Positions 1 to 17,663 of a stretch of 32,000 nucleotides of DNA are shown piece after piece. A model generated the notes under the pieces. It searched no databases, was not told the DNA's origin, and saw only the letters and a program-made list of their open reading frames with translations. The DNA comes from Flavobacteriaceae bacterium. Lineage in GTDB: Bacteria; Bacteroidota; Bacteroidia; Flavobacteriales; Flavobacteriaceae. Position numbers and translations under genes: made by a program. The first letter of the stretch is position 1, and every line of letters begins with the position of its first letter. The stretch is taken from assembly GCA_965224465.1 (NCBI GenBank), contig OZ245049.1, positions 4,590,001-4,622,000 on the forward strand. Reading direction: 5' to 3'.

Positions 1-501
1 TTGTGGAACTGGGAAATGCCAGATATTGAGAACCAAAAACTACCCTTATTTGTTTATGATACTGTATTTAAAGCGGAGGTGCCCTATTCAATTAATACAC
101 TTGACACCAAGGCAGTTGATTTATCTAAAATAGACAAAGACATACTGCTAGAGAAAGTACTTACAGAATTTACTAGGATTAGAGCATCTGTTATTAATAA
201 AACACAAGACAAAGAAGCTTTATGTAAATTGGTAAATCGTGGAATTATACAATTATACAAAGGAGAAAAACTTAAAGACGAGGTGGTTGATGATATGATA
301 AATCTTGGAGATGGAAAAGAACCACAAGCCTTAGAGAATTTTGAAATGTGCATGTATTATCACAATAGAACTGTAACTCTAGTTAGAAAAGTTAATAAAG
401 GAGCTGTTATCTGGTTTGAGAATCCAGAAACGGGAGGGACATCCTGGCAGCCTGTTTATATATACATAGATAAGGTTACTGGGAAATGGGTGCGATGGTA
501 A
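1..501 (+). CDS. Family-A secreted/lipoprotein paralog A0, C-terminal 166 codons (5' end lies outside the window)
   Basis: The frame is open from base 1 to TAA 499-501. WNWEMPDIENQKLPLFVYDTVF...YIDKVTGKWVRW aligns residue for residue with the C-terminal halves of 3723-4625 and 4637-5539 (19/166 differences against the latter by hand alignment). Confidence 0.85.
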   Translation: MWNWEMPDIENQKLPLFVYDTVFKAEVPYSINTLDTKAVDLSKIDKDILLEKVLTEFTRIRASVINKTQDKEALCKLVNRGIIQLYKGEKLKDEVVDDMINLGDGKEPQALENFEMCMYYHNRTVTLVRKVNKGAVIWFENPETGGTSWQPVYIYIDKVTGKWVRW

Positions 502-713: not shown

Positions 714-1637
714 ATGAAAGCACAAAAACACCTCATACTAAGCATTGCAATGCTAGTACTTGTTAATTGTAAAGGACAAGAAAGTAAAAAAACAAACGAT
801 CATAAAAAATACGCAATGAATATACCAAAAAAACAATATTTTCTAAACTTTGAGTTATTTATGTCTTATGAAATATATATAAATGACATGAAAATAGCAA
901 ATAACATTCAATCTGGACCAGTATCTGGATTACGATATTTGAACGATTATATTTTGAATTCGGGAAAACAAACAATAACATTAATTGACCGTGATTTAGA
1001 ACCTGATTCTAATATAGCAAATGATATATTTAAAAAAATAAGTTTAGAAATTTATAGTGCAGATGAAAATGATGAAAACACAAAGTTGGAAAAGAAGTTT
1101 GATTTCCCTGATATACCAACTCCAAGACCATATTATTATAAAAACACATGGGAGTTTGATGCTGAAGTTCCTTACACCGTAGACGGATGGAAAGATGGGC
1201 AAGATTTATCAAAAATAGATCAAAAAGAGTTGAAGAAAATGGTGGTAGCGAAATTTCAACACTTAAGAACAATTTTAAATCAAGGAAAAGTAGATCAATT
1301 TATGGAAGAAAACGCCAAAGGATATAAGGAATTTGTTATTACCAACTATTATCAAAAAAAATGGCATGAATTTGACGAAAACATTAGAGAAACTATAGGT
1401 AATCAAAAGGGAATTATGCTTCCTTTAGAGCATTATAAAATGAAAATAGTTGCAAATGGTCAATTGGTAACCTTAGAAAGAATTAACCTCCCTTATAAAG
1501 GACAAAGTGCATTGTTAGCAATCAATGAAAAAATAAACAGGCTATACACTGATTATATTCATTTATATATGCCAAAAGGAAAAACAAGCTTAGAGCCAAT
1601 ACGTCTAAATATAGAATATGATCTTGCTCATTTTTAA
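714..1637 (+). CDS. Family-B probable lipoprotein B1 (distant homolog of family A), function unknown
   Basis: 307-aa ORF. MKAQKHLILSIAMLVLVNC is a signal peptide ending in Cys. It shares positional motifs with family A (ILNSGKQ/ILKSGKQ, FDAEVPYT/FNAEVPYT, DLSKIDQKEL/DLSKIDKDIL). A near-identical copy lies at 5752-6675. Confidence 0.85.
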   Translation: MKAQKHLILSIAMLVLVNCKGQESKKTNDHKKYAMNIPKKQYFLNFELFMSYEIYINDMKIANNIQSGPVSGLRYLNDYILNSGKQTITLIDRDLEPDSNIANDIFKKISLEIYSADENDENTKLEKKFDFPDIPTPRPYYYKNTWEFDAEVPYTVDGWKDGQDLSKIDQKELKKMVVAKFQHLRTILNQGKVDQFMEENAKGYKEFVITNYYQKKWHEFDENIRETIGNQKGIMLPLEHYKMKIVANGQLVTLERINLPYKGQSALLAINEKINRLYTDYIHLYMPKGKTSLEPIRLNIEYDLAHF

Positions 1638-1742
1638 AAACAACAACTTTACAACAGATTAATCATCAATGATAAAAAGGCTGCTATCTGGTTTAAGAAT
1701 TCAAAAACGAGAGGAACATCCTGGCAGCCTGTTTATACTTAA
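1638..1742 (+). pseudogene. Orphan 3' fragment of a family-A gene, no start codon
   Basis: Translates to ...NDKKAAIWFKNSKTRGTSWQPVYT*, which matches the family-A tail KRAAIWFENPETGGTSWQPVYIY. It begins directly after, and in frame with, the B1 stop (1635-1637). Confidence 0.6.
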
Positions 1743-1995
1743 TACATTTCCAAGAGACGGTTTAGAAATGGAATTATTTTTTATATCGGTCATTTTGGAT
1801 TGTAATTGGTATCATATATACATAGATAAGGTTAAAGGGCAAAGTGGCTTGTCCGAAAAAAAAGAAGTATTAAAAAAAATCAACTTCTCACTTGGTATAG
1901 CCGCTGCTTATGGTACAAATAAAATTAATTTAACACCTGATTTAGGTAAAAAAATACATGACCTAATATATGAGTTTGCCAAAGCTAAAACTTAA
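1669..1995 (+). CDS. Doubtful chimeric ORF (108 aa) spanning gene-fragment debris
   Basis: The ORF overlaps the orphan fragment out of frame. It carries a second family-A tail remnant (WYHIYIDKVKG vs VYIYIDKVTGK, about 1806-1840) fused to unrelated sequence. There is no signal peptide and no recognizable motif. Confidence 0.2.
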   Translation: MIKRLLSGLRIQKREEHPGSLFILNTFPRDGLEMELFFISVILDCNWYHIYIDKVKGQSGLSEKKEVLKKINFSLGIAAAYGTNKINLTPDLGKKIHDLIYEFAKAKT

Positions 1996-2081
1996 TTGAT
2001 TCTATAAGTGGAAATTCTGTTAGTAAAGAAAAACAAAATTCATTATACAAAAATCGGATAAAAAATCTTGGTGGAAAATGG

Positions 2082-2768
2082 ATGAAAAAACTAGACAAAC
2101 TACCTGTTACCATAACAGTGTATCAACCCAGTTTTTCAGCTGGTTTTGCATGGGGTAGGAAAACATTGGAATCACAAACAAATTGCAATGCTCCTATAAC
2201 ATATGATGTGTTTTTAAAAGCAGATCCTTTATTTAAAATGGAAGGAAGCCTAGATTTAATTACCTGTGCTACTTTTATGCCTGTTATTGGACAGGTAATA
2301 AAAGTAGTTGATATTGTATTAAATGTTGCTGGAATAGAGCCTGTATTGAAGCTTACTGCCATGGGGGAAATTAAATTATCACTAATAGGTACAATAAAAG
2401 TTGACGGCGACACCAATGAGAAAAAACTAGAAACTAAAATGAGTGCAGGACTCAAAATGACTATAGAAGCAAGTATTACTATAGGAGATGGACTGGTAGG
2501 ATTTATGTTTGCCGGTGGTGATATTATTGGTGCTGTGACAAAAAACACCTATACCGCCTATGCGGAAACAGGATTTGAATTAAACCTATCCACTGGCGTT
2601 ACGGCTCATAAAGGCCCCTATGTAGGAGTGAAACTAGAATTCCTAGGTCTTATTGCCGCAGGGAAATTAGAAACAAAAATGGATGAATATGGAGGGACTT
2701 CCGAAGAATCTTTTAAGTATATTATTATAGAGAAAACTACTTTTATAGATAAAACTTTTTACTTTTAA
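2082..2768 (+). CDS. Hypothetical 228-aa beta-rich protein without signal peptide; candidate membrane-active partner of the array
   Basis: Clean ORF whose frame is closed upstream at TAA 1986-1988. It has alternating amphipathic stretches, a Gly/small-residue hydrophobic segment GDGLVGFMFAGGDIIGAV and a C-terminal ...TFYF. Its stop at 2766-2768 lies 4 nt before the ATG of the next gene. Confidence 0.7.
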   Translation: MKKLDKLPVTITVYQPSFSAGFAWGRKTLESQTNCNAPITYDVFLKADPLFKMEGSLDLITCATFMPVIGQVIKVVDIVLNVAGIEPVLKLTAMGEIKLSLIGTIKVDGDTNEKKLETKMSAGLKMTIEASITIGDGLVGFMFAGGDIIGAVTKNTYTAYAETGFELNLSTGVTAHKGPYVGVKLEFLGLIAAGKLETKMDEYGGTSEESFKYIIIEKTTFIDKTFYF

Positions 2769-2772
2769 AATT

Positions 2773-3546
<774 letters not shown>

Positions 3547-3711
3547 AATTTTGAAATGCACTTGTATTATCACAATAGAATTGTAACTCTTCTAAAAAAA
3601 GTTGATAAAGAGTCTGCTATCTGGTTTGAGAATCCAGAAACGGGAGGGACATCCTGGCAGCCTGTTTATATATACATAGATAAGGTTACTGGGAAATGGG
3701 TGCGATGGTAA
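3547..3711 (+). pseudogene. Orphaned in-frame 3' tail of A1 downstream of the premature stop
   Basis: It continues in the same frame as 2773-3546 and reads NFEMHLYYHNRIVTLLKKVDKESAIWFENPETGGTSWQPVYIYIDKVTGKWVRW, ending at TAA 3709-3711. This is homologous to the last 54 residues of the family-A C-terminus. Confidence 0.7.
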
Positions 3712-3722
3712 TAAAAGAAAGT

Positions 3723-4625
3723 ATGAATAGAATTTTATTGATTTCGTGGGGCTGTATTTTTTTCTGTTGTTCAGTGTATGGACAACAGAAAAAAAACATG
3801 AACACCCAAACCAGCCAACAGAACAATTACCCGTATAAAAACGACAGCCGACCTGGTTATTATTTACAAATAAATAATCAGAATTGTTATTACGAACTGA
3901 GAATTAATGATTTTAATGGAGGTAATTATTTTGGTATGTACCCATCATATTCAGTACGGATCCCTTTAAATTTACGAATATTAAAAAGTGGAAAACAAAG
4001 TCTTTCTTTAAAAATAGTTCCTTATAAAGGTGATACCCTGTCTCCCAAAGCCAACCTACAAATGCGTTTGATAAAATATGCAGACATGACAGATTTAGAA
4101 AACGAATATGGAGGAAGTACTGTATTGTGGAGCTGGGAAATGCCAGATATTGAGAATCAAAAATTACCCTTATTTGTTTATGATACTGTATTTAATGCAG
4201 AAGTGCCCTATACACTTGATAGACTTGACACCAAGGCAGTTGATTTATCTAAAATAGACAAAGACATACTGCTAGAGAAAGTACTTACAGAATTTACTAG
4301 GATAAGAGCATCTATTATTAATAAAACACAAGACAAAGAAGCTTTATGTGATTTTATAGATTGTGCACTTATACAATTATACAAAGGAGAAAAACTTAAA
4401 GACGAGGTGATTGATGGTATGATAAATCTTGGAGATGGAAAAGAACCACAACCCTTAGAGAATTTTGAAATGCGCATGTATTATCACAATAGAATTGTAA
4501 CTCTGGTTAGGAAAGTTAATAAAAGGTCTGCTATCTGGTTTGAGAATCCAGAAACAGGAGGGACATCCTGGCAGCCTGTTAATCTATACATAGATAAGGT
4601 TACTGGGAAATGGGTGCGATGGTAA
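3723..4625 (+). CDS. Family-A secreted/lipoprotein paralog A2
   Basis: The ORF track starts at 3696, but that ATG lies inside the preceding gene tail. ATG 3723 gives MNRILLISWGCIFFCCSVYGQQ, a hydrophobic signal parallel to the A1 MNKILL start. It is full length, ending ...KVTGKWVRW. Confidence 0.85.
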   Translation: MNRILLISWGCIFFCCSVYGQQKKNMNTQTSQQNNYPYKNDSRPGYYLQINNQNCYYELRINDFNGGNYFGMYPSYSVRIPLNLRILKSGKQSLSLKIVPYKGDTLSPKANLQMRLIKYADMTDLENEYGGSTVLWSWEMPDIENQKLPLFVYDTVFNAEVPYTLDRLDTKAVDLSKIDKDILLEKVLTEFTRIRASIINKTQDKEALCDFIDCALIQLYKGEKLKDEVIDGMINLGDGKEPQPLENFEMRMYYHNRIVTLVRKVNKRSAIWFENPETGGTSWQPVNLYIDKVTGKWVRW

Positions 4626-4636
4626 TAAAAGAAAGT

Positions 4637-5539
4637 ATGAATAGAATTTTATTGATTTCGTGGGGCTGTATTTTTTTCTGTTGTTCAGTGTATGGACAAC
4701 AGAAAAAAAACATGAACACCCAAACCAGCCAACAGAACAATTACCCGTATAAAAACGACAGCCGACCTGGTTATTATTTACAAATAAATAATCAGAATTG
4801 TTATTACGAACTGGATACAAATGGTTTAAGTAGTGCAGAGTATTATGGCGAATACCCTGCTTATTCAACAAGAATACCTCTAAATCTTCAAATATTAAAA
4901 AGTGGAACACAAAGTCTTTCCTTAAAAATAGTTCCTTATAAAGGTGATACCCTGTCTCCAAAAGCCAACCTACAAATGCGTTTGATAAAATATGCAGACA
5001 TGACAGATTTAGAAAATGAATATGGAGGAAGTACCGTATTGTGGAACTGGGAAATGCCAGATATTGAGAATCAAAAACTACCCTTATTTGTTTATGATAC
5101 TGTATTTAGAGCAGAGATGCCCTATACAATTAATACACTTGACACCAAGGCAGTTGATTTATCTAAAATAGACAAAGACATACTGCTAGAGAAAGTACTT
5201 ACAGAATTTACTAGAATAAGAGCAACTATTATTAATAAAACACAAGACAAAGAAGCTTTATCTAAAGCTATAAAACGCCCACTTATACAATTATACAAAG
5301 GGAAAAAACTTAAAGACGAGGTGATTGATGGTATGATAAATCTTGGAGATGGAAAAGAACCACAACCCTTAGAGAATTTTGAAATGCGCATGTATTATCA
5401 CAATAGAATTGTAACTCTGGTTAGGAAAGTTAATAAAAGGGCTGCTATCTGGTTTGAGAATCCAGAAACGGGAGGGACATCCTGGCAGCCTGTTTATATA
5501 TACATAGATAAGGTTACTGGGAAATGGGTGCGATGGTAA
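4637..5539 (+). CDS. Family-A secreted/lipoprotein paralog A3
   Basis: Same logic as A2: ATG 4637 lies 11 nt after the A2 stop. The first ~60 codons are identical to A2, and the 3' portion is the counterpart of A0. Confidence 0.85.
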   Translation: MNRILLISWGCIFFCCSVYGQQKKNMNTQTSQQNNYPYKNDSRPGYYLQINNQNCYYELDTNGLSSAEYYGEYPAYSTRIPLNLQILKSGTQSLSLKIVPYKGDTLSPKANLQMRLIKYADMTDLENEYGGSTVLWNWEMPDIENQKLPLFVYDTVFRAEMPYTINTLDTKAVDLSKIDKDILLEKVLTEFTRIRATIINKTQDKEALSKAIKRPLIQLYKGKKLKDEVIDGMINLGDGKEPQPLENFEMRMYYHNRIVTLVRKVNKRAAIWFENPETGGTSWQPVYIYIDKVTGKWVRW

Positions 5540-6816
5540 TAAAAGAAAGTTAAAATTTGATTACCCACGGTATTTTACATAGAGTCTGATTTTTCGACGG
5601 ATTTTTATTTTTCAGGAGTCACCATTTTTGTTAAATTTCAAGGAGGGAGAAAGAAAAAGGATAAACCCTCTACTTTTTCCATAATCGACGATTTAAGCAC
5701 TTCTTTTGATATTTTAAAAAAGAAAGGAGAATTCAAATAAAATAATAAAAAATGAAAGCACAAAAACACCTCATACTAAGCATTGCAATGCTAGTACTTG
5801 TTAATTGTAAAGGACAAGAAAGTAAAAAAACAAACGATCATAAAAAATACGCAATGAATATACCAAAAAAACAATATTTCCTGAACTATGAGCTATTTAT
5901 GTCTTATGAATTATATATAAATGATGTAAAATTAACCAATTACATTCAATTGGGACCAGTATCTGGTATGGAGTATTTGAATGATTACATTCTGAATTCG
6001 GGAAAACAAACAATAACATTAATTGACCGTGATTTAAAACCTAATTCTAATATGCCAAATGATATATTTAAAAAAATAAGTTTAGCAATTTATAGTGCAG
6101 ATGAAAATGATGAAAACACAAAGTTGGAAAAGAAGTTTGATTTCCCTGATATACCAACTCCAATACCATATTATTATAAAAACACATGGGAGTTTGATGC
6201 CGAAGTTCCCTACACAATAGATGGATGGAAAGATGGACAAGATTTATCAAAAATAGATCAAAAAGAGTTGGAAAAAATGGTGGTAGCTAAATTTCAACAC
6301 TTAAGAACAATTTTAAATCAAGGAAAAGTGGATCAATTTATGGAAGAAAACGCCAAAGGATATAAGGAATTTGTTATTGCCAACTATTATCAAAAAAAAT
6401 GGCATGAATTTGACGAAAATATTAGAGAATTAGTAGAAGATCAAGAAGGTTTTATGCTTCCTTTAGAGGATTATAAAATGAAAGTAGTTGCAAATGGTCA
6501 ATTGGTAACCTTGGAAAGAATTAACCTTCCTTATAAAGGACAAAGTGCATTATTAGCAATCGATGAAAAAGAGAATACGATATACACTGATTATATTCAT
6601 TTATATATGCCAAAAGGAAAAACAAGCTTAGAGCCAATACGTCTGAATATAGAATATGAGGTTGCTGATTTTTAAAAACAACAACTTTACAACATATCAT
6701 TAATGATAAAAAGGCTGCTATCTGGTTTAAGAATTCAAAAACGGGAGGGACATCCTGGCAGCCTGTTTATACCAAATACATTTCCAAGAGACGGTTTAGA
6801 AATGGAATTATTTTTT
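5039..6816 (+). repeat. Segmental duplication, copy 2
   Basis: See copy 1. Homology ends after ...GGAATTATTTTTT at 6816. Confidence 0.95.
5752..6675 (+). CDS. Family-B probable lipoprotein B2
   Basis: Copy of B1 at an offset of exactly 5,038 nt, with ~33/307 residue differences by hand alignment. Confidence 0.85.
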   Translation: MKAQKHLILSIAMLVLVNCKGQESKKTNDHKKYAMNIPKKQYFLNYELFMSYELYINDVKLTNYIQLGPVSGMEYLNDYILNSGKQTITLIDRDLKPNSNMPNDIFKKISLAIYSADENDENTKLEKKFDFPDIPTPIPYYYKNTWEFDAEVPYTIDGWKDGQDLSKIDQKELEKMVVAKFQHLRTILNQGKVDQFMEENAKGYKEFVIANYYQKKWHEFDENIRELVEDQEGFMLPLEDYKMKVVANGQLVTLERINLPYKGQSALLAIDEKENTIYTDYIHLYMPKGKTSLEPIRLNIEYEVADF

Positions 6817-6913: not shown

Positions 6914-7819
6914 TTACAATTTATAGCCTATAGAAAAAAGTACAATTCTTGGTGTGATGTATGTTTTTCTGTCAGAAACTATATAGCTGCTAAAACTATT
7001 ACTTTGTTTAAAATGTTGGTTAAATAAATTGTTAGCTGTTAAGAGAAAACTCCAAGCACTGTTTTCTTGTTGATAAAACAGAGATGATTGTGCAATTTTA
7101 TAGGTATTTCTGTTATTGATACTTTTGTTCTGATAGTGGTATTGTTCAAATTCAAAAGAGAAACTGAAATTTTCTAAAAAATCATATTCAATGTTTAGAA
7201 ATGGTTCTTGGGTAACAAAATTAGATATGTTTCCGCTAGAGGTATATTTTCCAAAACGTTGCTTGTATCCAATTTCAATGGTTGGAAATTTATCAAATAA
7301 AGTTTTTGCAGAGAGTTGATAACTGGTTTCGGTTTTCTTGTTTTTTACAAGAGTTTGGTCAATGGATTGTAAATAGTTTGAAGTGGAATAAGTTGTTTTT
7401 AAACGGTATTTTATGCGTTTTATTTTTTTATGGATGTCCAATCTGTACCTCCAGTCTTCACTTGGATTGTTTAGCATTACCGGGCTTAAATATTGATTTT
7501 TATTTTCGAACTGTACACTGTTTACAATACCTTTAATTTTTTTAGAATAGTTGAGGTTGGTATAAAGCATCAGGCCTCTGTATAAGCTAAATCTACGGAA
7601 GGAGAGTCTTGCATTGTGATAGATTTCGTTTTCCAAAGCAGTATTTCCTTTGTAAATAGAGTTGTAAGAACGTAGGTAGTAATTGTTGGCTAGTTTTGAT
7701 GCATTGCTAAACTTACTTTTAAGATGGTAGTTTAAGGTGATTTTTTTAGAATTTGAAAATTTATAAGTGCCTGTAAATTGCGGAAGTACAACTGTTTTTT
7801 GATGGTGTGTAGTATTTAT
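6914..7819 (-). pseudogene. C-terminal beta-barrel fragment of an outer-membrane receptor gene split by an IS
   Basis: The minus-strand frame is open from the IS boundary (...INTTHHQKTVVLPQFTGTYKF...) down to the stop at 6914. It ends ...VLFSIGYKL and has an alternating beta-strand pattern. The first canonical start is only an internal TTG at 7636. Confidence 0.8.
7812..7819. repeat. Target-site duplication GTATTTAT (left copy)
   Basis: The identical 8-mer directly abuts the other IS end at 9235-9242. Confidence 0.85.
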
Positions 7820-7939: not shown

Positions 7940-9172
7940 TCACGAACTGCTTCCGTTTTTATGTAAATCCAACGTTATTCGATCTTCAAATTTAATATAT
8001 AATTGTTGAATTGTCAAGCACCAATTATGTAAAGGGTTTGTCCATTTTTTTTCGATATTTTTTGTTGCTAAGTAAACAAGCTTCAATAGTGCCATATCAC
8101 TGGTAAAAGCCCCTTTTGTTTTAGTTACTTTTCTTACCTGTCTATGAAAACCTTCTACTGCATTTGTTGTGTAAATTATTTTTCTGATAGGTTCTGTATA
8201 CTGAAAAAACTGAGATAACTCTTCCCAATTACGGTTCCAGCTTTCTAAAACTACAGGGTATTTTTCTCCCCATTTTTCTTCTAATTTCAATAACTCCAAC
8301 TCAGCAATATCTTTATTAACTGCCTTGTAAACAAGCTTTAAATCTCGAATAAATTCTTTTTGATCTTTGGAAGCTATATACTTTAAAGAATTACGAATTT
8401 GATGAACAATACACTTTTGAATTTGTGTTTTAGGAAATACACTCAAGATAGCTTCTGAAAACCCTTTTAAGTTGTCTGTACAGGCAATTAGGATATCCTT
8501 AAGCCCTCTGTTATTAAGGTCTGTCAATACTTGAAGCCAAAAATTTGCGCCTTCACTTTCTGAAATATACATTCCTAAAACCTCTTTTATCCCTTCTTTA
8601 TTTACTCCTAAAACATTGTAAAGTGCTTTGTGTTGTATTTTACCGTCTACTTTTACCTTGTAATGCATAGCGTCAAGCCAAACAATGCAGTACATCTGTT
8701 CTACTGGACGACTTTGCCATTGTTTTATATCGGGTATGATCTTATCTGTAATTTGACTTAAAACAGTGTGTGATATATCTGTATCATACATCTCTTTTAT
8801 ATGACCAGAAATATCGCGTAAGCTCATTCCTAAGCCATATAATCCAATGATCTTATCTGATAAATTATCTGCTAAAATGGTTTGACGCTTTTTTATCAGA
8901 ACAGGCTCGAAACTACTATTTCTATCCGCTGGCGTACTTATTTCAAAACTACCAATACTAGTTTTAACAGTCTTTTTGCCCTTTCCGTTACGTTTATTCC
9001 CTTTAGAACGTTCCTCTTCACTAAGGTGTGATTCCATTTCTGCTTCCAATGCTTTCTCAAGAAATTGTTTCATTAAAGGAGCAAAGGCACCTTCTTTTCC
9101 GAATAAACTTTTTCCTGATAATAATTGATCCAATGCCTTTTTTTCAATGTTGGCTAACTCGTCTTTTGTCAT
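7940..9172 (-). CDS. IS256-family (mutator-type) transposase
   Basis: 410 aa. The layout and motifs are typical of Transposase_mut proteins (WLDAMHYKV, ACTDNLKGFSEAI, QKCIVHQIRNSLKY, YTTNAVEGFHRQVRKVTK). Confidence 0.9.
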   Translation of the reverse strand: MTKDELANIEKKALDQLLSGKSLFGKEGAFAPLMKQFLEKALEAEMESHLSEEERSKGNKRNGKGKKTVKTSIGSFEISTPADRNSSFEPVLIKKRQTILADNLSDKIIGLYGLGMSLRDISGHIKEMYDTDISHTVLSQITDKIIPDIKQWQSRPVEQMYCIVWLDAMHYKVKVDGKIQHKALYNVLGVNKEGIKEVLGMYISESEGANFWLQVLTDLNNRGLKDILIACTDNLKGFSEAILSVFPKTQIQKCIVHQIRNSLKYIASKDQKEFIRDLKLVYKAVNKDIAELELLKLEEKWGEKYPVVLESWNRNWEELSQFFQYTEPIRKIIYTTNAVEGFHRQVRKVTKTKGAFTSDMALLKLVYLATKNIEKKWTNPLHNWCLTIQQLYIKFEDRITLDLHKNGSSS

Positions 9173-9209: not shown

Positions 9210-9234
9210 CAGACAGAGTTGAGTTTACAGTCCC
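9210..9234. repeat. IS terminal inverted repeat (transposase-proximal end)
   Basis: See 7820-7844. Confidence 0.8.
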
Positions 9235-10985
9235 GTATTTATATTCCAGTTGTATTGATGCAAAAAAGCACCTTGTTTCGCTGTGAATTTACCGATTTTG
9301 AATTTGTAATCCAATCCTAAAAAAACATCCTGTAAGTTATAATTAAGTTGATTGTTAAATCCGTTTACGTCAAAGTTTTTACTGCTTCCGTCTTTTAATT
9401 TTTGGAAGTCGTTAGTATTGAATTCTTCATCTAATAAGTGGCTGCCAAGTGTTGTGTATATATGATTACTTTTATCTAAAATCCAATAATGTTTGGCAAT
9501 AAAATCAATCGTATGAATGCTGTTTTCTTTTTTTTGTATAAATGTATAGTTGTCTTGTGGTTTTAAAGGTATTAATCCTTGTAATAATTGCTTGTTTGTA
9601 AACCAAGTGGTGTAGGGGGTGTTCTTGTTCAAGGCAATATTAACAGCAAAAGAAAATGTGTGTTTATAGCTTAATTGAGTATGCCATTCTAAGCTTTGAA
9701 GGATATGGCTTGTTTTAGTATTTTGCTTGCTTAAAATAATAGTACTGTCATCTGTAATTGTAGAATTGATGCTGTTGTTATTTGAATGATCACTCTTTTT
9801 AATTTGGGTTTTTAAAAGCGATTTAGAATGTGCACTAGGTTCATAATCAAAGGTGATTTTGACGATGCTTAACCCGTTTTTTTGTGAAGAGTTATTACTG
9901 TTAAGCTCGTCGAATTGTGTGTATTGATTTAGTGTTTTTGTAGTGCTTTTAGTATGTGTGTTTGAAAATATACCATATCCAGAAACTTCCGTTTTATTAG
10001 TAATGCTTTGTCGAATGTTGATGGCACTGAATCTGTTTTTACTAGCAGTGTAATCTTGAATGTCCATGAATTGCGTAAAATCATTCATGCTACTTCCAAA
10101 AAAAGTACCATCACCTTTTAATGCCGCGTTTATGCCTCCTTGAAAATTCATGTAATCTTTAAATGTGAATACCTTTTCTCCTGTATTATTTGTGTTTGTA
10201 ATTAAATTGATGTTTGTTTTTGGGCTGTAATAGAATAAATTTCCATGAGCTCTGTAATACTTATTATTGCCTTTTCCTGCTTCAATATCACCAAACAAAA
10301 ACTTTTTCTTGTCTTTTTTCAATAAAATATTCAGGGCAGTTTGATTGCTTTCGGAAACGTTTTTTAAAAATGCAATCTCGTTGTAGTTCTCCAATACTTG
10401 TATGTTGCCTACCGCATTTGCGGGGATGTTTTCAATGGCAAGTTTTGTGCCTCCTCCAAAAAACGGTTTTCCATCCACTAATAATTTGTCTATTTTTTTC
10501 CCAAGTACGGTAATTTCAGCATCTTTAGAGATTTCTATACCCGGTAGTTTTTTTAATATGTTTTTTAATTTTCTTTCCTTGCCATTTATAAATTTAGAGG
10601 TGTTATAAGTAATTGTGTCTTCTTTTATGGATACGGGTAGCTCAATAATTATTTCTTCTAAATTATTGGACTGTTCCTTTAAGATGATCTCTTTTAAACT
10701 GTTTTTAACTGCTTCAAATTTGAAACTATAGGATTTGTATCCCATATAACTAACTTTTACACTATAAGATTCATTTGGTTTGAGTTTTAGTAGATACCTT
10801 CCTTTGGCATCACTAATCGAGAATTTTAATTGTAGTTGCTTGTTTGCAGGCTCAGCAATAATGTTCGCATAAACAATAGGGTTTTGTATGCTGTCTTTAA
10901 CTGTTCCTTTAAGAATGGTTTGTGCATAGGAGCTCCATCCAATAAGAATAATAATGTTAAGAAATAAAACAGTTTTACAATTCAT
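9225..10985 (-). pseudogene. N-terminal fragment of the outer-membrane receptor (signal peptide, CarboxypepD_reg-like domain, plug-like domain, start of barrel), truncated by the IS
   Basis: MNCKTVLFLNIIILIGWSSYAQ is a signal peptide. TILKGTVKDSIQNPIVYANI...YSVKVSYMGYKS looks carboxypeptidase-regulatory-like. LPGIEISKDAEITVLGKKIDKLLVDGKPFFGG looks like a TonB-receptor plug. The last 3 codons and the stop (TGL*) are read from IS sequence. Confidence 0.8.
9235..9242. repeat. Target-site duplication GTATTTAT (right copy)
   Basis: See 7812-7819. Confidence 0.85.
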
Positions 10986-12315: not shown

Positions 12316-12885
12316 TTACTTTAAATTAAAAACCTCTTCAAAGTGTAAAGTCTTTACATTGGCCATTCCTAAATTGATGGCTTCTTTATTTAAAGGAATT
12401 AAGTGGTGGTAACGCTCTGGTAGCGATTTTTTCAAACCTTCGATCACGTTTTCCAATTTAACAATTGGTTTAACCTTTAGGAACGCCCCTAAAATCACCA
12501 TATTAAAAATTTTTAAATTCCCTTTTTCTGTTGCCAGTCTATTTCCTTCTATTTGATAGATATGAATATCGCTACGTTTTGGATGTTCTGTAATTCCGTT
12601 GGGATCGTAGATTAATACGCCTCCTGGTTTTACAGCCTCCTCAAATTTATCCATACTTTGTTGGTTTAAAACAATAACGGTATCAAATATTTTTAAATAG
12701 GGAGAGCTAATGCGGTCATCACTTAATATAACCGTTACATTTGCAGTACCTCCTCGCATTTCTGGTCCATAAGAAGGCATCCAACTTACTTCCTGATCTT
12801 GCATAATACCAGAATAAGCTAATATTTTCCCCATAGAAAGTACGCCTTGACCTCCAAATCCTGCAATTATAATTTCTTCTGTCAT
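12316..12885 (-). CDS. 2-oxoacid:ferredoxin oxidoreductase, gamma subunit
   Basis: 189 aa. The N-terminal IIIAGFGGQGVLSMGKIL is typical of POR/VOR/KGOR gamma subunits. It is 6 nt from the beta gene. Confidence 0.85.
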   Translation of the reverse strand: MTEEIIIAGFGGQGVLSMGKILAYSGIMQDQEVSWMPSYGPEMRGGTANVTVILSDDRISSPYLKIFDTVIVLNQQSMDKFEEAVKPGGVLIYDPNGITEHPKRSDIHIYQIEGNRLATEKGNLKIFNMVILGAFLKVKPIVKLENVIEGLKKSLPERYHHLIPLNKEAINLGMANVKTLHFEEVFNLK

Positions 12886-12891
12886 GCTGAT

Positions 12892-13665
12892 TTATTTTAA
12901 TTTACCATTCACTTTAATATCTCCTAAAGGATAGTAAGCAAACATGTTTTCTTCCATCCAAATATTAGATTCTGTCGGAGTCATTTTCCATCCAGAATTA
13001 CAGTTAGAGACTATTTCTACAAAAGAAATGCCTTTGTGTAAGCGTGTGTTTTCAAAAGCTTTTTTTAGCGCTTTCTTTGCTTTACGTGCATGTTTATGGG
13101 TGTGTACTGCTTGTCTTGTGGCATAATAAACACCAGGAAGATTGGCAACCAACTCTGTCATTTTTAAAGGTGCACCTGTCAGTTCTTCTTGCCTTCCAAA
13201 AGGGGAGGTGGAGGATTTCATTCCTTTTAAAGTTGTAGGTGCCATTTGCCCGCCTGTCATCCCATAAATACCATTATTCACAAAAATAATGACGATGTTT
13301 TCTCCTCTGTTACAAGCGTGTATTGTTTCTGCTGTACCAATTGCGGCTAGATCGCCATCACCTTGGTAGGTGAATACATATTTTTCTGGCCACAATCTTG
13401 AAATTGCAGTGGCAAGTGCGGGTGCTCTACCGTGAGCTGCCTGTGTCATGTCTATATTCATGAAGTCATAAGCCAGTACAGAGCAACCTACAGGAGCGAC
13501 TCCGATAGTGTCCTGAATAATTCCCATTTCTGCCACAACTTCCATGGCTAAATTATGAGCGGTTCCGTGTCCACAGCCGGGGCAGTAGGACAAACAGGTA
13601 TCCGTCATGGCTTCGGTCTTACAAAATACTTTGTTGGCTGGTTTTATGATGTCTAACAGTTCCAT
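12892..13665 (-). CDS. 2-oxoacid:ferredoxin oxidoreductase, beta (TPP-binding) subunit
   Basis: Carries the CPGCGHG motif and the TPP signature GDGD...NNGIYGMTGGQ. Confidence 0.85.
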   Translation of the reverse strand: MELLDIIKPANKVFCKTEAMTDTCLSYCPGCGHGTAHNLAMEVVAEMGIIQDTIGVAPVGCSVLAYDFMNIDMTQAAHGRAPALATAISRLWPEKYVFTYQGDGDLAAIGTAETIHACNRGENIVIIFVNNGIYGMTGGQMAPTTLKGMKSSTSPFGRQEELTGAPLKMTELVANLPGVYYATRQAVHTHKHARKAKKALKKAFENTRLHKGISFVEIVSNCNSGWKMTPTESNIWMEENMFAYYPLGDIKVNGKLK

Positions 13666-14746
13666 TGTGTATGATTTTTTGTTCTAATGCTTCTAAAATT
13701 TCTTCTGGTGTGTGTATAATTCCTCCGGTGCGTCCAAAGTGTTCAACGGGTACTTTGTGTTCTACAGATAAACGTACATCTTCTACCATTTGACCAGTGC
13801 TTAATTCTACACTTAAAAATCCTTTTACGCGATCAGCAAGATCAAATAATTGTTTTTTAGGGAAGGGAAATAGGGTGATAGGTCTTAATAAGCCTACTTT
13901 ATATCCTTTGTCTCTTGCCAATTCCATTGCTTTTAATGCGATACGTGCACTAGACCCGTAGGCAACCATCACGTATTCTGCGTCGTCGCAGTTTACCATT
14001 TCGTAGCGTAAATCTTCGCGTTCCATTTGAGCGTATTTAGCATACAGACGATGTACACGTTCTTCTAACTTTTCGGACTGTAAGTCTAAAGAAGTTACAA
14101 TGTTTCGTTCACGTTCAGGTGTTTTTCCTGTACAAGCCCAAGAACCTTCTTCTGTAATTAATTCTTCGTTTGTTCTACGTACTTTTTGTGGTCTGAGCGC
14201 TACTTTTTCCATCATTTGACCTATCAATCCGTCAGATAAAATCAATACTGGAGCTCTGTATTTAAAGGCGATATCAAAGGCGTCTTCTACAAAATCTGAC
14301 ATTTCTTGTACAGATGCAGGAGCTAAAACATAGAGTTTGTAATCTCCATGTCCACCACCTTTTACTGCTTGGAAATAATCTGCTTGTGAGGGTTGGATTG
14401 TTCCTAATCCAGGACCTCCACGTGCTACATTTACGATGACTGCTGGTAGTTCTGCGCCTGCTAAATAAGAAATGCCTTCTAATTTTAAAGACATTCCTGG
14501 GCTAGAGGAGGAGGTCATTGCTTTTTTTCCAGTACTTGCTGCACCGTATACCATATTTATAGCGGCCAATTCACTTTCTGCTTGCAGCACTATCATGCCG
14601 GTACGTTTTTCAGGTTGTTCGGCCATTAAATATTCAATCACCTCGGATTGCGGGGTGATGGGATAGCCAAAATAAGCATCTACTCCTGCACGAATTGCTG
14701 CTTCGGCCAATGCTTCATTACCTTTCATTAATTTTAATTCAGACAT
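13619..14746 (-). CDS. 2-oxoacid:ferredoxin oxidoreductase, alpha subunit
   Basis: 375 aa. LMKGNEALAEAAIRAGVDAYFGYPITPQSE is typical of KorA/PorA/VorA. It overlaps the beta start by 47 nt. Confidence 0.85.
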   Translation of the reverse strand: MSELKLMKGNEALAEAAIRAGVDAYFGYPITPQSEVIEYLMAEQPEKRTGMIVLQAESELAAINMVYGAASTGKKAMTSSSSPGMSLKLEGISYLAGAELPAVIVNVARGGPGLGTIQPSQADYFQAVKGGGHGDYKLYVLAPASVQEMSDFVEDAFDIAFKYRAPVLILSDGLIGQMMEKVALRPQKVRRTNEELITEEGSWACTGKTPERERNIVTSLDLQSEKLEERVHRLYAKYAQMEREDLRYEMVNCDDAEYVMVAYGSSARIALKAMELARDKGYKVGLLRPITLFPFPKKQLFDLADRVKGFLSVELSTGQMVEDVRLSVEHKVPVEHFGRTGGIIHTPEEILEALEQKIIHNGTVRHHKTSQQSIL

Positions 14747-15209: not shown

Positions 15210-17663
15210 TTAATACAGTTTTTTGTATGTATTAGGGTCAGATTCACTCATTATGGCGTAAATAGCTTCAAAAATGTCATCGTGATTTGGTTTGGAAAAG
15301 TAATCTCCGTCAGATCCATATGCAGTTCTGTGTTCTTTAGCTGTAAGTGTAGCCGGTTTACTGTCTAAGAAGTTGTAGGCGTTTTGTTGCTCTAATATTT
15401 CCTGTAAAATATAGGCAGATGCGCCTCCAGGGACATCTTCGTCTATGACAATCAATCGGTTGGTTTTTTGTACGCTTTTTACGATATCATGATTCAGGTC
15501 AAAAGGCAATAAACTTTGAATATCTATGAGTTCTATATCGATGCCTACTTCGTTTAACTGTTGTACTGTTTCTTCTACTATTTTAAGTGTAGATCCATAG
15601 GATACAACGGTGATGTCTGTTCCTTCTTTTACAGTTTCAACCAGTCCTATAGGTGTTTTAAATGCCCCTATATTGTTTGGCATTTTCTCTTTTAGACGGT
15701 ATCCGTTTAGGTTTTCAATAATTAAAGCTGGTTCGTCACATTCTATTAAAGTATTGTAGAATCCTGCTGCTTTGGTCATGTTTCGAGGAACTAAAATATG
15801 CATTCCTCTCAAGAGGTGAACAATGGCTCCCATAGGGGATCCAGAATGCCATATACCTTCTAGTCGATGTCCGCGGGTACGAACAATAAGTGGTGCTTTT
15901 TGCCTTCCTACCGTTCTGTAATGCAATGTAGCCAAGTCATCACTCATTATCTGTATGGCGTAGAGTAGGTAATCTAAATATTGAATTTCTGCAATTGGAC
16001 GCAGCCCTCTAAGTGCCAGTCCTATTCCTTGACCTAATATGGTCGCTTCTCTAATACCTACATCTGCAACCCTAAGTTCTCCATATTTTTCTTGCATCCC
16101 TACCAAACCTTGATTGACATCGCCAATGTTTCCCGTATCTTCTCCGAAAATTACGACATTGTCGTTGTTTGCAAAAAGATGGTCAAAATTATCCTTTAAG
16201 ATAAGTCTCGCATCTACCATTTCTGCGTTTTCGTTATAGGTAGGTAGTACTTCTTTACTATTGCCAACTTTTAATTCGCTTTCACTGTATAGGTGCGAAC
16301 TAAATTTTGGTTGTTGTTCTTTCATATAATTAGCAATCCAGGTTTGAAGCTCTGTTTTTGCTGTAAAATCTTCATTTCTTAGATATACGATTATCTTTCT
16401 GGCACGTGAGAGTAAATCTAAACGAGCAGGGTCTCCTATGGCTAATAAATCACTTCGTAACTTGAGTATGAAAGCTTTTTGTTGACTTTTCTGAGCTACG
16501 TTTTCTAGTAATATGGTAAGCTTTAGTCGTTCCTCTTTTATAGGATTTAAAAAGGCAGCCCATGCAGTTCTTTTGGCAAGGCTAACTTCTTTTTTTGCTT
16601 CTTTTTCTATGCGAATTAAATCGTCTTCGTTTTCTATAAAAGAGAGTGTGTTCCCTTCGGTATCGGTCAATTCAAATTGTATGATCCAGTCTCTAAACTT
16701 GGCAATACAATCGTGTTGAAGTTCCCAAATTAGGCGCTCTTTACTTTTATAGCGTTCATGACTTCCAGAAGTGGAGTGTCCTTGTGGTTGGGTCAGTTCT
16801 TGTACGTGGATAAGTACTGGCACATGCTCTTCTCTTGCTATTTTTGCTGCCTTTTGGTACACTTCCATCAACTGTACATAGTCCCATCCTTTTACGGTAA
16901 ATATTTCATAACCGTTTTTCTTGTCATCACGTTGAAATCCTTTTAAAATTTCAGAGATGTTTTCTTTGGTGGTCTGGTGTTTTGCATGAACGGATATTCC
17001 ATATGCATCATCCCAAACGCTTATAATTAAAGGGACTTGTAATACCCCTGCTGCGTTAAAAGTTTCGAAAAATACTCCTTCAGACGTACTTGCATTTCCT
17101 ATGGTTCCCCAAGAAATTTCATTTCCATTTTTAGAGAAATTCGTATGCCCTTTAATTTCGTCTATGTTTCTATATAGTTTTGATGCCTGTGCCAATCCTA
17201 GCATACGCGGCATTTGCCCTGCTGTAGGGGAGATGTCGGAGCTTGAATTGTATTGTTCTGTCAAGTTTTTAAAACTTCCGTCTTTGTTCAAACTTTGGGT
17301 TCCAAAATGCCCACCCATTTGACGCCCACCAGACATAGGGTCGTTATTAATGTTTGGATCTGCATATAAACCTGCAAAAAACTGTTGCGGTGTTAGAGCT
17401 CCAATAGCCATCATAAATGTTTGATCGCGGTAGTAGCCCGATCTGAAATCACCTTTTTGAAAGGCTTTAGCCATCGCCAATTGAGGAACTTCTTTCCCGT
17501 CTCCGAAAATACCAAATTTTGCTTTGCCTGTCAATACTTCTCTACGACCTAATAAACTACATTCTCTACTAACTACAGCAATGCGGTAATCCTTGAGGAC
17601 TTCATTCTTAAAATCGTTAAACGAGATCTTTTCTTTACTTTCGGGTGAAGGGCTTACCTGCAT
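15210..17663 (-). CDS. Fused 2-oxoacid dehydrogenase E1 component (alpha/beta, TPP-dependent)
   Basis: 817 aa. The N-terminal half looks E1-alpha-like and the C-terminal half looks transketolase/E1-beta-like (VADVGIREATILGQGIGLALRGLRPIAEIQYLDYL). This architecture is common in Flavobacteriia. Confidence 0.8.
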   Translation of the reverse strand: MQVSPSPESKEKISFNDFKNEVLKDYRIAVVSRECSLLGRREVLTGKAKFGIFGDGKEVPQLAMAKAFQKGDFRSGYYRDQTFMMAIGALTPQQFFAGLYADPNINNDPMSGGRQMGGHFGTQSLNKDGSFKNLTEQYNSSSDISPTAGQMPRMLGLAQASKLYRNIDEIKGHTNFSKNGNEISWGTIGNASTSEGVFFETFNAAGVLQVPLIISVWDDAYGISVHAKHQTTKENISEILKGFQRDDKKNGYEIFTVKGWDYVQLMEVYQKAAKIAREEHVPVLIHVQELTQPQGHSTSGSHERYKSKERLIWELQHDCIAKFRDWIIQFELTDTEGNTLSFIENEDDLIRIEKEAKKEVSLAKRTAWAAFLNPIKEERLKLTILLENVAQKSQQKAFILKLRSDLLAIGDPARLDLLSRARKIIVYLRNEDFTAKTELQTWIANYMKEQQPKFSSHLYSESELKVGNSKEVLPTYNENAEMVDARLILKDNFDHLFANNDNVVIFGEDTGNIGDVNQGLVGMQEKYGELRVADVGIREATILGQGIGLALRGLRPIAEIQYLDYLLYAIQIMSDDLATLHYRTVGRQKAPLIVRTRGHRLEGIWHSGSPMGAIVHLLRGMHILVPRNMTKAAGFYNTLIECDEPALIIENLNGYRLKEKMPNNIGAFKTPIGLVETVKEGTDITVVSYGSTLKIVEETVQQLNEVGIDIELIDIQSLLPFDLNHDIVKSVQKTNRLIVIDEDVPGGASAYILQEILEQQNAYNFLDSKPATLTAKEHRTAYGSDGDYFSKPNHDDIFEAIYAIMSESDPNTYKKLY

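Follow-up and report, generated by a model that had tools for sequence, protein, structure and literature searches.

A 228-codon reading frame in a flavobacterial lipoprotein array, identified by homology as the tail of a truncated, frameshifted orphan copy of a putative type VI secretion toxin

The open reading frame (ORF) analysed here (2082–2768, forward strand, 228 codons from an ATG start, stop included) lies in a 32,000-nt stretch of a Flavobacteriaceae genome (contig OZ245049.1, positions 4,590,001–4,622,000 of the forward strand; hereafter the window), within a tandem array of two families of lipoprotein genes, A and B. By homology, the ORF is identified as the 3′ part of a 5′-truncated, frameshifted orphan copy of a ~985-residue toxin belonging to a type VI secretion system (T6SS). 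The segment 1855–2768 was interpreted, with a probability of roughly 0.8, as the orphan C-terminal toxic domain of a ~985-aa Bacteroidota T6SSiii cargo effector, most likely of the type of Bte3, which, together with Bti3, makes up an effector–immunity pair in the GA3 T6SS of Bacteroides fragilis (Valguarnera et al., Nat Commun 2026, PMC13402684). The orphan copy comprises the following features:

1670–1850, forward strand: degraded remnant of an A-paralog 3′ end, forming the 5′ junction of the orphan, located by DNA alignment with the 3′ ends of A0–A3
1855–1989, forward strand: orphan effector fragment in frame +1, equivalent to residues 676–720 of the 983-aa effector of Aquimarina longa
1987–1990, forward strand: run of four A, the frameshift site, one A fewer than in the intact 366-aa sister copies
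1989–2768, forward strand: orphan effector C-terminal domain in frame +3, equivalent to residues 721–983
2226–2333, forward strand: family signature PLF..G.LDL and amphipathic helical hairpin inside the beta domain, from conservation and an AlphaFold2 (AF2) model
2484–2537, forward strand: Gly-rich hydrophobic segment GDGLVGFMFAGGDIIGAV, an A-subtype-specific hairpin-tip loop, indel-prone and modelled with low confidence
2664–2735, forward strand: hypervariable patch, holding 11 of the 14 variable columns of eight C-terminal copies

The ORF is genuine coding sequence: by tblastn, frame +3 of the window (1989–2765) matched the C-terminus of the A. longa effector (residues 721–983) at 76% identity over 263 aa, and frame +1 (1855–1989) matched residues 676–720 at 62% over 45 aa, the same two-frame pattern being obtained with Aquimarina sp. 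RZ0 (68%) and A. muelleri (40%). The stretch 1855–1989 is also present in the 985-aa P0185, the full-length copy of the source genome, and residues 758–985 of that protein are 96% identical to the translated window ORF, which is the portion of the frame +3 stretch after its first in-frame ATG. An earlier reading of the DNA from its letters and ORF translations (the sequence-only reading) had presented a 228-aa protein as the only non-paralog gene inside the array. The ORF is real, but it is not a complete gene, since coding homology runs upstream in a second frame, and the statement about the array holds only if the ORF at 1669–1995 is counted as its other half. The reported lack of a signal peptide or lipobox in the 228-aa ORF was borne out, as was the 4-nt gap to the adjoining A1 gene (TAA at 2766–2768, then AATT, then the A1 ATG at 2773), the end previously placed at 2772 having included the spacer.

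In the databases, the closest relative is P0001, a 366-aa protein at 99% identity that continues unbroken through ORF 1669–1995 into the 228-aa ORF. Where P0001 requires GCT AAA AAC TTA (...AKAKNLIDS), the window has GCT AAA ACT TAA, with AAAA in place of AAAAA, and the loss of this one nucleotide at 1987–1990 splits the orphan into the ORFs 1669–1995 and 2082–2768. The four-A allele may be a true mutation, or the assembly may have miscounted the homopolymer. Programmed frameshifting at the A run was considered and rejected, as it had no supporting feature and intact sister copies exist. Further upstream, the 3′ ends of A0–A3 are near-identical to the window over ~65 nt (1670–1737) and again over ~1815–1850 (DNA alignment), and the ATG at 1669 is fortuitous. 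Since the sequence upstream of ~1850 is an A-paralog tail, even the 366-codon "gene" is a fusion to approximately codon 645–676 of a larger protein. The orphan is without ~675 N-terminal residues of the effector, including all that could load it onto the secretion spike; with these missing, it should be incapable of spike loading, and by itself it is most likely neither secretable nor a functional toxin. For annotation, the lesson is that a compact-looking toxin ORF may be just the end of an orphan that has been truncated and frameshifted.

Architecture of the C-terminal domain

For structure prediction, a C-terminal model from a shallow alignment was poor (predicted local distance difference test, pLDDT, 49), and the full-length A-type homologue P0010 (67% identical to P0001 in alignment) was modelled by AF2 with a 109-sequence multiple sequence alignment at a pLDDT of 75. 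The P0010 model has beta-rich N-terminal domains, a helical linker (~633–757), and, at the C-terminus, a nine-stranded domain in which six strands are 20–24 residues long (761–979) and which encloses a helical hairpin at 811–834 (helices 811–815 and 821–834, between long strands). The remote-homology and fold search proposed in the sequence-only reading gave no Pfam, NCBIfam, PDB-sequence or meaningful Foldseek match. Pfam and NCBIfam returned nothing above chance for the window ORF, the upstream ORF, the A and B proteins and the full-length effector; PDB sequence searches with the window ORF, the 109-sequence family profile and A2 were empty; and Foldseek searches of the PDB with the full-length model gave only generic immunoglobulin-like tandem-domain matches (TM-score ≤ 0.26). 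With the pLDDT-49 C-terminal model, Foldseek gave nothing at E < 0.01, and the rows for pore-formers and porins, with probabilities ≤ 0.14, were not used as evidence.

The alternating amphipathic beta pattern described earlier was confirmed. Hydrophobicity along the window ORF has a lag-1 autocorrelation of −0.19, against 0.00 ± 0.07 for shuffles, and in the alignment of 109 homologues the six long C-terminal strands alternate between mean hydrophobic fractions of ~0.7–1.0 and 0.13–0.32. In the same alignment, residues conserved in >80% of homologues within the C-terminal domain are Pro, Asp, Gly, Leu and Phe only, with no conserved His, Ser, Cys or Glu. Near-invariant positions (P0010 numbering) are P768, P801, D810 and G941, of which P801 and D810 are the Pro and Asp of the family signature (~99% conserved), and L802, L811, G822 and F939 exceed 78%. 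Since the conserved set is without catalytic-looking residues, a mechanism of binding or insertion would be expected rather than an enzyme.

In the sequence-only reading, the 228-aa ORF had been taken as a candidate membrane-disrupting effector or pore-former, on account of its Gly-rich, glycine-zipper-like segment and its C-terminal aromatic residue. The features used for that proposal are not conserved in the family, and no fold or sequence match to a pore-forming toxin was found. The columns of the Gly-rich segment are occupied in 15–50% of the 109 homologues, the modelled confidence there is low (pLDDT <50 at 887–905), and the B-type counterpart is acidic/polar; a terminal aromatic (...KTFYF in the window) occurs in only 8 of the 109. 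That the 228-aa ORF would be a self-contained, signal-less glycine-zipper effector with A1 as its immunity protein was consequently judged highly improbable, and largely refuted by the homology upstream: the ORF start falls inside a conserved domain, with homology continuing for a further 230 nt in another frame, no delivery domain is present, A1 carries an in-frame stop, and the Gly-rich segment is a variable loop absent from B-type relatives. What speaks for a self-contained effector is the tight spacing to A1, the amphipathic strands, the occurrence of the Gly-rich hydrophobic segment in all A-type C-termini, and the fact that the non-significant Foldseek matches of the low-confidence model were mostly long-hairpin pore formers and porins, although none of these exceeded a probability of 0.14 or fell below an E-value of 0.01.

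Other membrane architectures were also considered for the domain and rejected: a transmembrane helical hairpin, as polar positions recur at helical periodicity and make the hairpin amphipathic; an outer-membrane beta-barrel with KTFYF as its beta-signal, given the rarity of the aromatic end, the missing signal peptide and strands of 20–24 residues; and the glycine-zipper effector class, as no conserved GxxxG-type membrane segment exists at 2484–2537.

Outside the C-terminal domain, two cysteines of the N-terminal part are near-invariant in the family, C397 (DPCGYS) and C605 (STCRYPNQ), as is P618 (P0010 numbering). The two cysteines may form a disulfide or a metal site just upstream of the C-terminal domain.

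Parent effector family and its lipoprotein partners

Homologous loci were gathered from a genome-collection scan and exact-protein look-ups under 11 identifiers (L001–L011), corresponding to ten distinct loci besides the window, L004 being the L001 contig. They derive from Aquimarina, Tamlana, Spongiivirga, uncultured Flavobacteriaceae, a Chitinophagaceae metagenome-assembled genome, and an uncultured organism whose T6SS cluster is Bacteroidales-like. All share a module of VgrG (Phage_GPD / Phage_base_V), g321 (a ~320-aa adaptor-like protein with no Pfam domain), a DUF4280 PAAR-like protein (E 1.6e-14), the effector, and one or more lipoproteins, with one gene of the module incomplete in four of L001–L011 (contig end or weak match). 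The effector homologues (776–1007 aa) are always directly followed by one to three lipoprotein genes homologous to A/B, the first of them placed between a 4-nt overlap and ~+130 nt. In L011, Hcp/TssD and TssE are encoded upstream, the gene order is VgrG, effector, lipoproteins, adaptor-like gene, DUF4280, and the three lipoproteins after the effector are homologous to the A/B paralogs at E 1e-4 to 8e-18, the latter value being that of B1.

A profile of the C-terminal domain, used in an exhaustive hidden Markov model (HMM) search, matched 287 cluster representatives at E ≤ 1e-3 and 155 at E ≤ 1e-10. Full-length matches are mostly 750–1050 aa, with the domain always C-terminal, and many shorter matches are fragments; in those of 755–776 aa, the domain begins at approximately residues 440–535 and runs to near the C-terminus. 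Named members, all annotated "hypothetical protein", come from Flavobacterium, F. oreochromis/columnare, Cellulophaga, Pedobacter and Porphyromonas macacae, the matches from F. oreochromis/columnare and Porphyromonas being 762–774 aa long. Among the ten clusters of ~755–776 aa that were looked up, no member is named B. fragilis.

The C-terminal ~330 residues fall into two homologous subtypes, A-type and B-type, which are alignable throughout. A-type C-termini (this orphan, L002, L003 and L005) are followed by A-type lipoproteins, with 68%, 64% and 40% identity to A2 in L002, L003 and L005, respectively, and B-type C-termini (L001, L006–L010) by B-type lipoproteins with 28–33% identity to B1 and a weaker match or none to A2. 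Effector and lipoprotein subtypes co-vary in 9 of 9 loci, which is the strongest computational support for a putative immunity-like role of the A and B proteins. Under this pairing, only the A paralogs would be cognate to the window fragment, and B1 and B2 correspond to an effector subtype seen here in other genomes only. The toxin–immunity link suggested by the sequence-only reading therefore holds in part. The window does contain toxin-derived sequence beside A-type putative immunity partners, and in the loci gathered, full-length homologues are, as the suggested co-occurrence check would have it, always directly 5′ of an A- or B-family lipoprotein gene, with matching subtype in 9 of 9 loci; the B paralogs pair instead with the B-type C-terminus, and the 228-aa ORF is not the self-contained effector of such a pair.

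The pairing also bears on the reading in which the large protein would serve mainly to build or load the T6SS spike, with the A/B lipoproteins as accessory envelope factors. In B. fragilis, deletion of bte3 is described as abolishing Hcp secretion (PMC13402684); the protein is conserved over its whole length, its gene stands in a fixed order with the VgrG, adaptor and PAAR-like genes, and no invariant residues look catalytic. According to the same paper, Bte3 kills E. coli only if it is exported to the periplasm, and the lipoprotein Bti3 neutralises it. Subtype co-variation, lipoprotein amplification, orphan fragments and hypervariable patches are hallmarks of toxin–immunity systems, and B-type lipoproteins occur in the window without a B-type effector fragment there. 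A primarily structural role was judged quite improbable.

The proposed sequence of events for the cargo effector is as follows. The full-length protein would be encoded after VgrG, the ~320-aa adaptor-like protein and the DUF4280 PAAR-like tip protein, as in the homologous loci, and would probably be loaded onto the spike via its beta-rich N-terminal domains and fired into a neighbouring Gram-negative cell. Its C-terminal domain, predicted by AF2 to consist of long amphipathic beta-hairpins around an amphipathic helical hairpin, would act in the periplasm or envelope, by analogy to Bte3 and given the lipoprotein nature of its partner. Producers would be protected by the periplasm-facing lipoprotein encoded immediately downstream, A-type for an A-type and B-type for a B-type C-terminus.

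Several observations were made on the islands themselves. The DUF4280 PAAR-like proteins of L001–L010 have a common N-terminal ~170 aa followed by differing C-terminal extensions, giving total lengths of 453–457, 533, 568 or 653 aa, against 161–167 aa for the extension-free form (examples at L002:5655-7028, L006:1616-3577, L007:6186-7787 and L010:5098-6804), and g346 (346 aa) follows in all four loci with the 453–457-aa form. From this arrangement, the extended DUF4280 protein and g346 look like a second, polymorphic PAAR-like toxin–immunity pair in the island. Effector fragments starting at approximately residues 527–630 were found after the main effector–immunity pair at L001:10001-11065, L006:9473-10198, L003:10408-10725 and L007:12746-13066. 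In the first of these, P0004, an A-type orphan that follows a main effector of the B-type, the C-terminus of a B-type lipoprotein takes the place of the last ~100 residues.

Tandem array and copies in the source genome

Within the window, the orphan is surrounded by the following lipoprotein genes:

1–501, forward strand: A0, 3′ part (166 codons) of an A-type lipoprotein gene cut by the window edge, 92% identical to A3
714–1637, forward strand: B1, B-type lipoprotein of 307 aa with signal ...LVLVNC, homologous to genes in the immunity position after B-type effectors
2773–3711, forward strand: A1, A-type lipoprotein paralog read as a pseudogene, with an in-frame TAA at 3544–3546
3696–4625, forward strand: A2, intact A-type lipoprotein, from ORF translation and homologues downstream of A-type effectors
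4610–5539, forward strand: A3, intact A-type lipoprotein, following the 914-nt period
5752–6675, forward strand: B2, B-type lipoprotein and last gene of the array, one repeat unit (5038 nt) from B1

A lipoprotein signal with its Cys is present in A1, A2, A3, B1 and B2. The A genes repeat at 914 nt (DNA identity of A1–A3, 86–94%), and the unit of B, orphan, A, A, A has a period of 5038 nt within the window; since A0 is 92% identical to A3 and spaced from it by the same 5038 nt, it represents the previous unit of the array. Over ~300 aa, B1 is 28–34% identical to the gene that immediately follows the effector in L001 and L006–L010, and A2 is 64–69% identical to the genes directly 3′ of the A-type effectors in L002 and L003, its true start likely being the ATG at 3723 (MNRILLISWGC...). 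In A1, the gene abutting the orphan, the TAA at 3544–3546 corresponds to GAG in A2; as this difference takes two substitutions, it is not a sequencing indel, and from its sequence A1 is a presumptive pseudogene or encodes a truncated protein. A1 also carries a (CAA)15CAG poly-Gln tract at 2827–2874, right after the lipobox Cys, where other A paralogs have only QQ.

Copies of the array genes in the source genome were drawn from the members of 90%-identity clusters on a single 5,241,564-bp contig, on which the exact 228-aa product (P0192), A2 (P0193) and B1 (P0201) all lie. The genome holds P0185 and seven further, truncated copies of the effector. P0185 (985 aa) aligns with the A. longa effector over the entire length at 62% identity; a second long copy, truncated at approximately residue 250, is split into P0186 and P0191; the identical A-remnant junction is carried by four 366-aa orphans, and two copies are 228-aa versions (P0187 and P0192). 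The A cluster has 8 members and the B cluster 7, giving at least 15 lipoprotein paralogs. The eight toxin C-termini (P0185, P0191, P0001, P0188–P0190, P0187 and P0192) differ at only 14 columns, of which 11 fall within a 22-residue patch at P0185 residues 953–974; this patch may be an immunity-contact loop. The A paralogs (window 2773–5539; P0193–P0200) are mosaic at two patches, where two or three alleles occur in various combinations, one at residues ~67–90 (RINDFNGGNYFGMYPSYSV vs DTNGLSSAEYYGEYPAYST) and one at ~205–235 (EALCDFIDCAL, EALSKAIKRPL and KDLIRGIRRPL), a pattern that suggests gene conversion or diversifying selection. Two effector subtypes with matching immunity, eight near-identical toxin copies and mosaic immunity paralogs together provide material for mapping the immunity interface.

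In the proposed history of the array, recombination would have fused the 3′ end of an A paralog to approximately codon 645–676 of the effector, deleting the delivery part, and the resulting ~5-kb unit (B, orphan, A, A, A) would then have been tandemly amplified, the window copy additionally losing one homopolymer A to leave a 228-codon ORF. Cytoplasmic translation of the orphan should be harmless, like that of cytoplasmic Bte3. The orphan is probably a pseudogene or a recombination cassette, and the working output of the array is probably immunity (A2, A3, B1 and B2), which would protect against the A-type effector P0185, its variants, and the B-type effectors of competitors.

A different use of the same unit was also weighed, and is regarded as a tentative possibility, clearly less likely than the reading given above. 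Here the frameshift would be an assembly error and the real gene a 366-codon orphan kept as part of a cassette reservoir, the ~5-kb unit serving as a working store of diversity from which a C-terminal variant and its matched A-type immunity gene could be recombined into the single full-length gene, changing specificity. The frameshift does lie in an A run, on a single 5.24-Mb contig that suggests long reads, and the four 366-aa copies are intact; two independent copies annotated at 228 aa (P0187 and P0192) nevertheless indicate that the truncation may be real. The clustering of 11 of 14 between-copy differences in one patch and the mosaicism of the A paralogs would fit such a store, but recent amplification with gene conversion explains both patterns equally well, and the high identity between copies may reflect recent amplification only. 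Exchange would be served by the at least 45 near-identical codons that the orphans and P0185 have upstream of the beta domain; other-subtype orphan fragments recur downstream of the main pairs in L001, L003, L006 and L007, and recombination of orphan Rhs modules in Salmonella offers a precedent (PMC3967940). No recombinant was observed. If the reservoir proved true, cassette switching would be described for the first time in a T6SS cargo effector of the non-Rhs, Bte3 type, and the hypervariable patches (one in the toxin, two in the A lipoproteins) would mark the toxin–immunity interface.

Against the interpretation as a defunct orphan of a Bte3-type effector, several points have to be set. The four sister orphans keep their 366-codon ORF, with differences clustered in one patch, and these copies could be expressed and selectively maintained instead of decaying; in a long-read assembly, the frameshift could also stem from a miscounted homopolymer. 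The T6SS linkage in the source genome is deduced from P0185 and its relatives, the main locus lying outside the window; exact-protein look-ups of P0001, B1, B2 and P0185 yielded no record of the DNA upstream of the window. The effector structure was read from the AF2 model at the level of secondary structure, the open barrel being putative. The Bte3-like assignment rests on matching architecture, synteny and immunity type, and toxicity, compartment and immunity roles in the Aquimarina clade are putative, by analogy.

Just past the array end, an IS256/Mutator-family transposase gene was found at 7940–9172 (reverse strand, Pfam E 8e-98), by which a gene for an outer-membrane-protein-like product with a CarboxypepD_reg domain is apparently split (9225–10985 and 6914–7636, reverse strand). 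Housekeeping genes follow, among them those at 12316–14746 and 15210–17663 (reverse strand); the set comprises 2-oxoacid:ferredoxin oxidoreductase subunits, an E1/transketolase-like dehydrogenase, UvrA, a TrkA-type K+ channel and a Na/Ala symporter. Since housekeeping genes fill the rest of the window, the border of the island lies between 6675 and ~12000.

Comparison with known systems

Among T6SS effectors, Tse4, Ssp6, Tme and the VasX/Bte2 family are likewise envelope-acting antibacterial cargo with membrane- or periplasm-located immunity, but they are helical membrane inserters, whereas the domain of the window type is predicted to be mostly long beta-hairpins. With glycine-zipper and pore-forming T6SS effectors, the Gly-rich hydrophobic loop is held in common by the A-type C-terminus only, and Pfam, PDB and Foldseek searches gave no sequence or fold match to them.

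Orphan Rhs and CdiA modules offer a second comparison, and for Rhs, one report describes orphan toxin expression selected by recombination in Salmonella (PMC3967940). Like these modules, the window copy is a 5′-truncated C-terminal toxin fragment without a delivery region that retains a stretch homologous to the main gene, has immunity genes behind it and occurs in arrays, and it could plausibly serve recombinational switching. The carrier, however, is neither Rhs/YD nor CdiA, and Pfam and NCBIfam searches found no Rhs/YD or contact-dependent inhibition (CDI) domains. In Rhs and CDI systems, unrelated toxin domains follow a PxxxxDPxGL or VENN motif, whereas the A- and B-type C-termini are homologous variants of one fold with an invariant Pro, Pro, Asp and Gly in common; a classic polymorphic-toxin architecture with unrelated C-termini was rejected, as the two types align throughout. 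The scale of the amplification is also unusual, one genome carrying eight copies of the C-terminus along with at least 15 lipoprotein paralogs.

The array further resembles the orphan immunity islands of gut Bacteroidales, the acquired interbacterial defence (AID) and recombinase-associated AID (rAID) systems (PMC12247911), in holding immunity genes without an adjoining working cognate toxin, in including types (here B) that match effectors of other strains, and in diversification concentrated in patches. It differs in that the window shows no recombinase beside the array, the only mobile element there being the IS256-family transposase, and in that it includes pieces of the toxin and probably adjoins the effector locus of the producer itself.

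The closest likeness is to Bte3/Bti3, as described in PMC13402684. There, Bte3 is secreted in complex with its own VgrG, the adaptor Ate3 and the DUF4280 PAAR-like Pte3, and structural orthologues are reported in free-living Bacteroidota, always beside a Bti3-like gene, with F. columnare named for the adaptor; the fold of Bti3-like immunity proteins is a beta-sandwich with 4 helices. Common to both systems, at the level of predicted secondary structure, are a large effector that has no signal peptide, N-terminal domains rich in beta structure and a ~300–350-aa beta C-terminal domain, together with a ~300-aa lipoprotein gene directly downstream and linkage to VgrG, a ~310–320-aa adaptor-like protein and a DUF4280 protein. 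The gene order of L011 mirrors that described for the btei3 locus. In contrast to Bte3 (768 aa), the Aquimarina proteins are ~200 aa longer (980–1007 aa), their adaptor and PAAR-like genes lie upstream of the effector and not downstream, and the window copy, unlike Bte3 as described, is a truncated, frameshifted orphan in a tandem array. All features that could be checked (gene neighbours, secondary-structure architecture, domain position and lipoprotein partners) agree with the description, and on this likeness by description the parent protein is most likely a Bte3-like T6SSiii cargo effector. An unannotated array of "hypothetical" genes would become interpretable as an island of interbacterial warfare, and a marine clade of Flavobacteriaceae would be tied to the recently described Bte3/Bti3 toxin type.

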